NCBI GenBank assembly: GCA_002787695.1
Contig: PCXL01000011.1
Span: 61,155 to 125,154 of the forward strand
DNA length: 64,000 bases
Source: Candidatus Zambryskibacteria bacterium CG10_big_fil_rev_8_21_14_0_10_42_12
GTDB lineage: Bacteria > Patescibacteriota > Minisyncoccia > Phycocordibacterales > 1-14-0-10-42-12
Direction: 5' to 3'
Each line of letters begins with the position of its first letter. Position 1 is the stretch's first letter. The notes under the pieces are model-generated. The model worked only from the letters and a program-made list of their open reading frames with translations. It was not told the DNA's origin and did not search any database. Shown in pieces: positions 1-1,358 of this stretch. A program made the position numbers and the translations under genes.

Positions 1-1082
1 GATCCTGCTTCCGCTACTTTTTCTGCAAGCTTTTCTCGAAGATACTTGCTTGCCATAACACCTCCACCAAATGCACATGATTGTGCACCAGATTCGACCA
101 AAGCCTTGAAGAGCTTTGTGGTGAGCACATCGGCGACAGCTTCTTCAAATTCTCTCGCAAGACCCGCCTGCCATTCGGCTTGAGCCGTCAGGCGATTGGC
201 GGGCAGGCCCGCTTTTTCATCCTCACTAAATTCATTATCTCTCACTGCATAGAGCACTGCTGTCTTGAGTCCAGAAAAAGAAAAGTCTAGATCAGGTGTA
301 CCAATCATAGGTCGAGGAAGTTCTACGGGTGAAGGAATCTGTTCTACCCGTGCTCGTTCGGCGAGGCGTCCGATTTCCGGACCGCCGGGATATGAAAGAC
401 CCAAGAGGCGCGCAGTCTTGTCATAGGCTTCACCGACCGCATCGTCGCGTGTTTTGCCGACTATAGTATATGAACCCCAAGAATCCATGTGAATAATCTC
501 TGTGTGTCCACCAGAGACGAGGAGAGTTGTCATGGGGAAGTTTGGTGTCTTGATGACATTATTTTCAAACAGGGCAGAGACGAGGTGTCCCTCCATGTGA
601 TTCACCGGAATAACTTCGACATGAGGCCAGAGCACTTTGAGTGCATGGGCAAAATTGATACCGACCCAAAGCGCCGGTTCGAGCCCTGGGCCTTGCGTGA
701 TGGCAATCACATCAATTCCCTCACCACTTACCCCGAGTAAGTGTTGCACAATATGTTCATAGAGATCAGGTTCACGTTCGAGCACTTTCTGAATTTTTTC
801 TTTTGTCTCGATGCTTGCTTCGATCTGTGTTTTAAAGAGTTCATTTTCTTTTTCTTTACTCTCCGCAATCACTTTCAGCATTACTGGAACCAGGTTCAAT
901 CCATGCTCGCGTTTTGCAAGTGCTGGAAATACTCCCCCGAATTCGGCGTGTAGATTTGCTTGTGAATGCACGATATGTGCCAAAACATCGACAGATATGC
1001 CCGTATCTGTTTTGTGCGTTCGTATGAGTGCAATCGAAGTTTCGTCACAGCTTGTCTCTATAGATAGAATAGTTTTTTGCAT
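1..1082 (-). CDS. tsaD: tRNA N6-threonylcarbamoyltransferase TsaD (3' end outside window), with a 15-codon repeat insertion
   Basis: Manual translation from ATG at 1082 gives MQKTILSIETSCDETS..., with NHMEGH, LLVSGGHTE and TRDDAVGEAYDK motifs. Absent from the ORF track because it is truncated. Confidence 0.95.
   Translation of the reverse strand, partial: MQKTILSIETSCDETSIALIRTHKTDTGISVDVLAHIVHSQANLHAEFGGVFPALAKREHGLNLVPVMLKVIAESKEKENELFKTQIEASIETKEKIQKVLEREPDLYEHIVQHLLGVSGEGIDVIAITQGPGLEPALWVGINFAHALKVLWPHVEVIPVNHMEGHLVSALFENNVIKTPNFPMTTLLVSGGHTEIIHMDSWGSYTIVGKTRDDAVGEAYDKTARLLGLSYPGGPEIGRLAERARVEQIPSPVELPRPMIGTPDLDFSFSGLKTAVLYAVRDNEFSEDEKAGLPANRLTAQAEWQAGLAREFEEAVADVLTTKLFKALVESGAQSCAFGGGVMASKYLREKLAEKVAEAG
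163..207. mobile_element. 45-bp palindromic element inserted in frame in tsaD
   Basis: CCCGCCTGCC-ATTCGGCTTGAGCCGTCAGGCGATT-GGCGGGCAGG; same ends as the copies at 1108, 1195 and 62636. Confidence 0.85.
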
Positions 1083-1107
1083 ACTTTTTGTGCGCGGTGA
1101 GGGACTC

Positions 1108-1149
1108 CCCGCCTGCCAACGCCTGAAGTCGTAGACAATAGCGGGCAGG
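1108..1149. mobile_element. 42-bp palindromic element in the T-loop of the outer tRNA-Val
   Basis: CCCGCCTGCC-AACGCCTGAAGTCGTAGACAAT-AGCGGGCAGG; no target-site duplication. Confidence 0.85.
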
Positions 1150-1194
1150 GAACCCCCGGCATCAACAACGTCAATGTTGCGCTCTACCAACTGA

Positions 1195-1301
1195 CCCGCC
1201 TGCCAACGCCTGGTGATCCTTGGTGGGATCGAACCACCGACCTTTTCGATGTCAACGAAACGCTCTACCACTGAGCTAAAGGATCGTATGCATGGCGGGC
1301 A
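1195..1301. mobile_element. 107-bp copy of the same element in the D-stem, carrying a whole tRNA gene
   Basis: First 18 bp (CCCGCCTGCCAACGCCTG) are identical to the 1108 copy; it ends ATGGCGGGCA; the interior is tRNA 1211-1285. Confidence 0.85.
1211..1285 (-). tRNA. tRNA-Val(GAC), intact, CCA encoded, nested
   Basis: GATCCTT TA GCTC AGTGGTA GAGC G TTTCG TT GAC AT CGAAA AGGTC GGTGG TTCGATC CCACC AAGGATC A CCA; all stems pair. Confidence 0.96.
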
Positions 1302-1358
1302 GCTAACCGCGCAGAACGGGGCTATAGTATCGTTTCTGGCTGTATATTTCAAATGGTA

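Follow-up and report, generated by a model that had tools for sequence, protein, structure and literature searches.

Hairpin elements holding complete tRNA genes inside tRNA genes of the same anticodon in Patescibacteria: probable rescue of the genes they interrupt

Introduction

The gene for tRNA-Val(GAC) upstream of tsaD in a Candidatus Zambryskibacteria genome is interrupted by two small hairpin elements, and one of these holds a second, complete gene for tRNA-Val(GAC) in place of its loop. Elements of the same build, each with a whole tRNA gene between two short arms, recur at many other loci and usually, where the outer gene can be rebuilt, lie inside a gene of the same anticodon. We think it quite probable that the outer gene in such nests is a dead shell rescued by the cargo of a mobile hairpin. 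At the locus described here, the inner tRNA would likely be the one that now supplies Val(GAC).

The stretch of DNA that was analyzed, hereafter the window, comprises 64,000 nucleotides (C9:61155-125154) of an assembly (G000) of 675 kb in 26 contigs. Coordinates without a contig name refer to the window. The nest was first noticed by a reading of these letters without database searches, which is called the original prediction below.

Results and Discussion

Anatomy of the nest

ARAGORN calls a single tRNA-Val(GAC) in the native window, the inner gene, which also has the top tRNA score of the window (71.9 bits, Rfam). When 1108-1149 (42 nt) and 1195-1301 (107 nt) are deleted in silico, ARAGORN finds a second tRNA-Val(GAC) cloverleaf, as the original prediction had proposed, and its three pieces (1302-1312, 1150-1194 and 1091-1107) rejoin base-perfectly. 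The common ends claimed for the two inserts amount to 18 identical bases at one end, and the intact 75-nt tRNA said to occupy the place of the loop on the same strand is the gene called at 1211-1285. ARAGORN prints no scores, so the highest threshold still giving a call was used as a proxy; by this measure outer and inner tRNAs are equal (120 and 120). The parts of the locus are as follows.

3..1082, minus strand: tsaD (PF00814), the downstream neighbor, which runs off the window
163..207, minus strand: third hairpin copy of the window, 45 nt, in frame inside tsaD, where it adds about 15 residues
1091..1107, minus strand: 3′ piece of the outer tRNA, positions 57-73
1108..1149, minus strand: empty hairpin element, 42 nt, at the T-loop site TTC^GA
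1150..1194, minus strand: middle piece of the outer tRNA, positions 12-56 (D-loop, anticodon arm GAC, 5′ strand of the T-stem)
1195..1301, minus strand: cargo-bearing hairpin element, 107 nt, in the 5′ strand of the D-stem at TAGC^TCAG, without target duplication
1195..1210, minus strand: 3′ stalk and arm of the cargo element, a 16-nt trailer; the same part of the empty copy is identical
1211..1285, minus strand: inner tRNA-Val(GAC), 75 nt with CCA (ARAGORN; Rfam, 71.9 bits)
1286..1301, minus strand: 5′ arm and lower stalk of the cargo element, a 16-nt leader of the inner tRNA
1302..1312, minus strand: 5′ piece of the outer tRNA-Val(GAC), positions 1-11 (in-silico deletion; orthologue at L002)
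1324..1352, minus strand: sigma-70-like promoter match, 9/12, ending 12 nt before the outer tRNA

Outer and inner tRNAs are identical at 49 of 76 positions; they agree near the D-stem site and little elsewhere. The outer tRNA matches, at 72 of 74 positions, an uninterrupted tRNA-Val(GAC) upstream of tsaD in a relative (G032, locus L002), where the neighboring Ser(CGA) and Glu(TTC) genes are also present. The best match of the inner tRNA among the loci compared is 62 of 75. To judge from these sequences (72/74 against 49/76), the outer tRNA is the resident gene of the host and the inner one is foreign. Local duplication of the host gene, which the original prediction had already discounted, is rejected on the same identity of 49/76.

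Among the 34 tRNA calls that ARAGORN makes for the assembly, no intact Val(GAC) other than the inner gene appears. A Val(TAC) gene is also present, so Val(GAC) may be dispensable and the necessity of a rescue is unproven. The promoter search found two sites where 0.5 were expected from shuffles, and the sigma-70-like match listed above would drive the inner tRNA. Within the cargo element, whose DNA folds with a z-score of -3.4, the 5′ arm is two bases short unless those bases are common to element and target. The resident tRNA (piece 1150-1194) has G37, as do many relatives, and the cargo gene has A37; the swap may change the modification that the tRNA requires. A reading frame that starts at a TTG (1352) runs uninterrupted across the nest into tsaD (3-1352, minus strand, 450 aa), but it is probably due to chance, with the real tsaD start at 1082.

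The hairpin and its empty copies

The element consists of 11-base arms with a fixed mismatch and a variable loop, without an ORF. A search of G000 with the arms gave 31 raw matches compared with 4-6 in shuffles, and 12 credible copies were picked by eye from 19 rows. Two of the 12 are those in tRNA-Val, three lie in frame in ORFs, three occupy duplicated 5′ ends of tRNA genes next to an intact gene for Phe, Ile(TAT) or Thr(TGT), and the remaining four are elsewhere. The copy inside tsaD sits where three homologues (L004, L012 and L013) have a gap of about 14 residues. The copy in the T-loop is identical at 39 of 42 positions to one beside a GIY-YIG gene at the Thr locus (see below).

Beyond this genome, empty copies 36-45 nt long were found in 14 of 251 genomes of the order, with one to about thirty in each and none in the control. 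Thirty sampled loci yielded 29 distinct empty sites, 15 of them in long ORFs; one further sampled row was a spurious frame over the tRNA locus of the window. Among the 15 copies in ORFs, 14 have a length divisible by three, and six lie sense, eight antisense and one in both orientations. These lengths and mixed orientations indicate that the element acts at the DNA level, in the manner of Rickettsia palindromic elements (RPEs). The arms are invariant in 16 copies and accordingly show no covariation, an invariance for which the search pattern itself selects.

Several individual copies deserve mention. The loop of the copy at C9:123790-123831 is the reverse complement of that of the T-loop copy (local score 14 inverted versus 6 direct) and the arms keep their polarity, which suggests that the loop can flip. 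At C9:51793-51960 (tRNA-Phe) and C11:35000-35177 (tRNA-Ile(TAT)), the intact gene follows a dead copy of its 5′ end, which has an empty element at TAGC^TCAG. Four stretches in viral contigs match the empty pattern, and in two viral contigs (L339 and L341, 280-350) one arm pair is nested within another.

Cargo-bearing hairpins form a family

The layout of the cargo copy was turned into a search pattern (arm, 50-80 nt, T-loop, 5-30 nt, arm), which itself fixes the arms. This pattern was found at no fewer than 120 metagenome loci and at least 119 genome loci. The original prediction had been prepared to regard the nest as a one-off if no other copy carried cargo, and the arm-tRNA-arm layout is instead present at a minimum of 239 loci. 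Viral contigs contain no match to the cargo pattern and none to a 5′ motif of the inner tRNA, and a phage donor or carrier was rejected on that basis. Full flanks were obtained for 80 metagenome and 80 genome loci; the 80 genome titles are mostly Patescibacteria, with some given as 'uncultured Gammaproteobacteria' or 'bacterium'. In an even sample of the class, 8 of 401 genomes contain the pattern and none its reversed control, so the layout is not a product of chance.

The matches listed, 240 with the window copy, reduce to 200 distinct ones. A complete tRNA lies between the arms in 198 of these 200 listed matches, and 25 anticodon types are represented. With the element taken out, an outer tRNA can be reassembled in 107 of the 198 listed cases; in the other 91 it cannot be rebuilt. 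Where rebuilding succeeds among the matches listed, the outer tRNA has the anticodon of its cargo in 93 of 107 cases and the amino acid in 94 of 107; permutation gives a mean of 6.6 (maximum 16) for anticodons and of 18.6 (maximum 32) for amino acids. Among the 14 of 107 listed outers without the anticodon of their cargo, six are unassignable and eight receive another call. All 104 of the listed outers that are singly rebuilt are on the strand of their cargo. Cargo copies thus lie, as a pattern, on the sense strand of a tRNA gene with the same anticodon, in keeping with the cargo slot and rescue that the original prediction had envisaged.

Elements with cargo are 100-128 nt long and have no ORF. 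Without the tRNA, the scaffolds of the listed matches have a median length of 37 nt, close to the size of an empty copy, which indicates that the tRNA replaces the loop of an empty hairpin. When the listed elements are folded as RNA, 169 of 198 show arm-to-arm pairing at nine or more of 11 bases. Among 104 cargo sites, 55 are on the D-loop side, 43 in the anticodon arm, five in the T-arm and one within the first 13 positions, so that the site of the window locus, in the 5′ strand of the D-stem, is a rare one for cargo (1/104 at position 13 or below). Target duplications of two bases or more were found at 5 of 193 listed sites, versus 19 of 193 in a shifted control.

Cargo elements that are at least 90% identical form 62 pairs among the matches listed, and 35 of these pairs have flanks less than 70% alike, where neither element pairs nor genomes are independent. 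Near-identical elements in unlike flanks fit movement as a unit. Nests reach a depth of up to four layers (L261). Other loci depart from the common form: one has a tRNA-Arg cargo between arms of reversed polarity (L124), one is a 102-nt element with a cargo that is not a tRNA (L240), and in one, several cargo elements sit one within another as a stack (L026).

The original prediction had drawn attention to the CCA encoded by the inner gene. The inner gene does encode CCA, but the last two bases are also element sequence, since the empty copy has CA at that place; the CCA is thus partly element stalk and weaker evidence than first supposed. Nor is it a trait of the family, with CCA encoded by 27 of 198 cargo tRNAs compared with 45 of 116 free tRNAs of the same loci, among the matches listed. 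On these counts, capture of mature tRNA by way of RNA was rejected as the mechanism of the family. The flush ends of the cargo would still fit an intermediate that lacks CCA.

Targeting and the anticodon match

The cargo sites of the listed matches have no sequence word in common across isotypes. Within 10 nt of the site, the likeness of an outer tRNA to its own cargo is 0.80, compared with 0.74 to other cargo of the same anticodon, and elsewhere in the tRNA the corresponding values are 0.73 and 0.69 (n = 81 for both comparisons). For hosts with unrelated far flanks, the 18-nt flanks of similar elements are 0.71-0.86 alike and those of dissimilar elements 0.51-0.72, in 21 similar and 52 dissimilar element pairs that are not independent. 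These figures hint at homology-assisted insertion or at co-transfer of flanks. We judge it moderately probable that the anticodon match has two sources, homology of cargo or flank with the target and selection against insertions that are not rescued.

A candidate mobilizer

A gene for a 78-residue GIY-YIG protein (PF01541, E 2.7e-14) is located at C9:139371. Its start lies 21 nt behind an empty copy of the element, and its stop is followed directly by tRNA-Thr. The locus as a whole (C9:139308-139790) contains a duplicated tRNA-Thr 5′ end with hairpin, the GIY-YIG gene, an intact tRNA-Thr(TGT) and a second hairpin downstream. The protein has no NCBIfam match, and its only PDB match is the UPF0213 protein 1ZG2 (E 4.5e-05).

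The closest relatives of this gene, defined by E ≤ 1e-26, were found in 8 of the 251 genomes from the order. In 7 of these 8 the hairpin described here lies just upstream, inside a duplicated tRNA 5′ end, and the tRNA behind the stop of those seven genes is complete in five and cut by a contig end in two. Those of the eight that were found by protein alone have the hairpin upstream in 4 of 5 cases, and more distant GIY-YIG genes have both arms upstream in only 2 of 19. Empty copies matching a strict pattern occur in 4 of 7 genomes with a close gene versus 9 of 243 without (Fisher p 1.4e-4, with kin that are not independent), and a close nuclease gene is missing from nine of the 13 genomes besides G000 that have empty copies. 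GIY-YIG genes are near 5 of the 239 cargo loci listed and never between the arms.

On balance the evidence tips slightly toward movement that is started in trans by this stand-alone nuclease, which would recognize the arms. The hairpin could also be a passenger in the dead tRNA ends beside GIY-YIG genes. An autonomous element with the nuclease between its arms was looked for and not found: a pattern of arm plus nuclease start has no match in 301 genomes, and no arm-enclosed ORF occurs in the loci examined, whose flanks are short. Shared protein neighbors of cargo loci other than GIY-YIG were set aside, the large ORF clusters being translations of the tRNA and the element themselves. Two other GIY-YIG genes were observed in a tRNA or rRNA setting. 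A second small ORF of G000 (C2:6971-7168, 55% identical) lies inside what appears to be the 5′ part of a 16S rRNA gene, and a more distant gene (L084:226-620) stops immediately ahead of a tRNA-Leu(TAA) shell with a cargo element inside.

The same anatomy and rescue could also arise if a Y1 (HUH, REP-associated) transposase or host repair moved the hairpins, with the anticodon match produced by selection alone. Insertion without duplication beside a hairpin is the mode of IS200/IS605-type Y1 enzymes, and the insertions described here resemble it. Two Y1 genes (PF01797) are present in G000, and the absence of a common word from the listed sites across isotypes would suit this account. Y1 insertion next to a hairpin is also mentioned in a study of Ssn nucleases (PMC11893778). 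However, no element lies within 5.3 kb of either Y1 gene (the nearest is about 5.4 kb away, or there is none on the contig), compared with 21 nt for the GIY-YIG start, and the hairpin tracks the closest GIY-YIG subfamily (7/8 versus 2/19). Selection alone would also not be expected to yield an excess of homology over other cargo of the same anticodon, though kinship of donor and host could give such an excess. We rate a Y1 or host-repair origin as rather unlikely and prefer the GIY-YIG nuclease as candidate. The two Y1 genes are at C9:46400-46657, adjoining an RNase P RNA candidate (C9:46978-47414), and at C15:49142-49438.

Copies of the inner tRNA elsewhere

Two short contigs from other studies contain the inner tRNA. 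One, from X4 (151 nt, depth 3), includes 1205-1297 with two differences and both stalk halves in other flanks, and continues into an arm and the apparent 3′ end of another tRNA, as read from a loose end of 30 letters; that X4 is RNA is only a guess. The other, from a third study (X3; 157 nt, depth 5), has the inner tRNA unchanged in flanks that are not the element. Together these contigs lend weak but independent support to the view that the foreign tRNA would have been loaded once and then moved.

A different history is that of a one-off capture, in which an empty hairpin first entered the D-stem and a foreign tRNA-Val then entered its loop by short-homology repair. The inner tRNA begins and ends on GA and CA words that are found at the same places in empty copies, and in G000 the 5′ fragments of Phe and Ile have empty copies at this very TAGC^TCAG site. 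Moreover, a second Val(GAC) cargo element is present neither in the 200 distinct matches listed nor in 300 genomes of the phylum, where the arm-bearing matches are Val(CAC) elements, and the same tRNA occurs free in X3. Against this history, the X4 contig has the tRNA with both stalk halves in other flanks, near-identical cargo elements are found in unlike flanks in 35 of 62 listed pairs, and capture in this order requires a stage without Val(GAC). We find a one-off capture quite unlikely, and arrival of the tRNA within a mobile cargo hairpin is our preferred reading.

The orthologous tsaD-tRNA-Val locus, whose comparison the original prediction had recommended, was found uninterrupted in G032 as described above. 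Two further relatives (L003 and L004) have at this locus a broken start of a Val gene followed by a different intact Val(GAC), so replacement of Val at the tsaD locus has happened more than once. The breaks there (L003:1420-1570 and L004:1450-1640) are due to other hairpins, a 20-nt palindrome and another family. The only genome of the same genus (G001, 59% complete) gives no match, and no empty allele was obtained from a close relative.

Fate of the outer gene

Across the matches listed, outer tRNAs score below their cargo in 74 of 104 cases, equal to it in 21 and above it in nine, by the ARAGORN proxy. Median scores among the listed matches are 114 for outers, 120 for cargo and 118 for free tRNAs. 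Rebuilt outers still score at least 104 in 82 of the 104 listed cases, which indicates that many events are recent, as at the window locus. The original prediction had noted the undecayed stems of the outer tRNA and considered either a recent event or continued function; since outers decay relative to cargo across the family, the stems here point to a recent event.

Shells that could not be rebuilt are also informative. Another GC hairpin lies no more than 60 nt away in 31 of 94 unrebuilt shells compared with 11 of 104 rebuilt ones, and the junction 16-mer of unrebuilt shells fits their own cargo over cargo for other amino acids in 84 of 90, in both cases among the matches listed. In four genomes (G071, G289, G571 and G701) the nested copy is the sole tRNA-like match for its anticodon, and in G189 it probably is; a second Thr(TGT)-like match exists beside the nested copy in G286. 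The same search missed the Gln(TTG) of G000 itself, so this test for sole copies is imperfect.

The original prediction had offered, as its second possibility, that the hairpins are removed from RNA as introns or intervening sequences and that one transcript yields two tRNAs. The undecayed outer cloverleaf with its score of 120, the 82 of 104 listed outers at or above 104, and the folding of both inserts that brings their ends together (z -5.0) would all be compatible with removal. Yet the splicing endonuclease PF01974 and the ligase RtcB (PF01139) have no match in G000, which is 98% complete by markers (control searches match in 4 of 14 and 10 of 14, respectively), and Rfam finds only tRNAs in the window and no intron. 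In addition, outers decay and gather further inserts, the copies in ORFs, with lengths divisible by three and either orientation, are consistent with inserts that are translated, and every nested case has a second copy of the tRNA, which would be needless if the first were spliced. RNA-level removal is thus very unlikely. Decay of outers, insertion without target duplication and in-frame empty copies in both orientations together make a DNA-level element that replaces tRNA genes, and not splicing, the most likely reading.

Support from independent contigs

Run X1 may represent the source sample, and its contigs agree with 700-1189 and 1251-1700 at every position. They cross the two junctions of the T-loop insert and, of the cargo insert, the 5′ one, so that the junctions of the original prediction are supported at three of four, with 1190-1250 unbridged by any of the 23 contig pieces listed. 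An assembly artefact, in which two tRNA-Val loci of different organisms were joined via the hairpin arms, is extremely improbable: the tRNA draws contigs of many organisms and one interval is unbridged, but exact contigs cross three junctions, the outer pieces rejoin without error, and the layout recurs at 198 distinct listed sites including one in a single-contig genome (G571, L273). X1, a DNA run, also contains a joint of 1106 to 1150 with one other base between (depth 7.6), which we read as the uninterrupted tRNA of another organism and not as a product of splicing.

Proposed mechanism

The element is a pair of fixed 11-base arms around a loop that varies. It leaves the target unduplicated on insertion and comes either empty or with a whole tRNA in the loop's place. 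We propose that the cargo copy moves as one DNA unit, and that its insertion into a single-copy tRNA gene would be survivable because a working copy arrives behind the promoter of the host. RNase P and the 3′ nucleases of the cell would release the tRNA from the paired stalk; the RNase P RNA candidate of G000 scores 57.6 bits, below the Rfam cut-off. The outer gene would then be free to decay and to take further inserts, such as the T-loop copy at this locus, where the event would be recent. By analogy with Ssn nucleases, the GIY-YIG protein may act on the arm sequence, probably in single-stranded DNA.

Taken as a whole, these steps would describe a new, minimal form of mobile DNA that supplies its own rescue: a hairpin with 11-base arms whose loop can be exchanged, served in trans by a 78-residue GIY-YIG nuclease, with a tRNA as both homology guide and rescue, by which tRNA genes of Patescibacteria are repeatedly overwritten. 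We advance this complete scheme tentatively, as something a little short of probable.

Comparison with known systems

Our literature search found no published description of tRNA-carrying hairpin elements, in accord with the original prediction, which knew of no bacterial example; most subscription papers were beyond its reach. According to a review, RPEs and prokaryotic MITEs are small palindromic repeats that lie in frame in unrelated protein genes and disperse in bursts, with RPEs of about 150 bp (PMC10969869). The empty element likewise lies in frame within unrelated protein genes, among them tsaD and two further ORFs of G000, but it is only 36-45 nt long and does not duplicate its target, and the loaded form brings complete tRNA genes into cognate ones. 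It resembles MITEs in its 11-nt imperfect inverted arms and in having neither transposase nor ORF of its own, and differs from them in the absence of a target site duplication. The words 'tRNA' and 'cargo' do not occur in the review (PMC10969869).

Ssn nucleases, as presented by Chenal et al. 2025, are encoded by small single-domain GIY-YIG genes beside a short hairpin repeat (NTS/SRM) that is scattered genome-wide; they cut single-stranded DNA beside their hairpin, and a mobile-element origin is proposed for the pair (PMC11893778). The 78-aa single-domain GIY-YIG gene and its adjacent hairpin are comparable. However, the SRM motif is absent from the three window copies and from the ends of the 198 cargo elements listed, the hairpin is on one side only and inside a duplicated tRNA end, and the NTS is rarely inside genes (PMC11893778). 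The study does not contain the word 'tRNA' and shows no transposition or cargo (PMC11893778).

T4 SegB, a free-standing GIY-YIG enzyme that recognizes tRNA-gene sequence, spreads tRNA genes non-reciprocally, but it moves a region between phages by double-strand breaks, with neither nesting nor hairpin (PMC2330249). Archaeal bulge-helix-bulge introns and bacterial group I and II introns interrupt tRNA genes at one position or several, including non-canonical ones, and 'nested' does not appear in the review concerned (PMC4390854). The inserts described here, at 42 and 107 nt, differ from group I and II introns in having no ribozyme core (Rfam, window). They differ from introns of the archaeal type in that no splicing endonuclease or ligase match was found in G000, an assembly that may be incomplete, and in that the interrupted genes decay. 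REP and IS200/IS605 systems differ as well, since the Y1 genes of the one genome considered are not flanked by the repeat.

Integrative elements and prophages that enter tRNA genes encode an integrase and bring part of the gene, which rebuilds the original. There, as in the nests, the insertion is made harmless by sequence that the element brings. The nests differ in that the unit is 100-128 nt long, has no integrase ORF and no att duplication, and brings a whole different gene, with the two halves of the old gene remaining around the insert. The empty element thus behaves like an RPE, the loaded one like a tRNA-restoring integrative element, and the likely partner resembles an Ssn nuclease, while each of these is departed from in a defining feature. 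Single parts resemble known systems (RPE-like repeats, Ssn nucleases, SegB); the combination fits none of them.

If this reading is correct, selfish DNA can invade essential single-copy genes by neither splicing nor integrase-type restoration, and a unit of roughly 100-125 bases carries the whole gene that its insertion breaks. tRNA genes, usually deemed the most vertical of genes, would turn out to be swapped rapidly within a major bacterial phylum, with 25 anticodons represented. The consequences would extend to tRNA counts, to pseudogene calls and possibly to escape from nucleases that target tRNA. Should a 78-residue nuclease and an 11-base arm drive insertion, without duplication, of any content of the loop, they would make a very small system for inserting cargo.

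Other tRNA genes of the genome

Three further observations on tRNA genes were made in G000. A tRNA-His(GTG) at C6:5854-6551 has a 612-nt insert at position 38 (ARAGORN with introns). Gly and Pro tRNA genes are uncalled, Lys(TTT) and Trp(CCA) are each called twice, and N gaps occur at some tRNA loci. Finally, a degenerate Gln-like tRNA remnant lies at C9:159890-159945, about 250 nt after tRNA-Gln(TTG).
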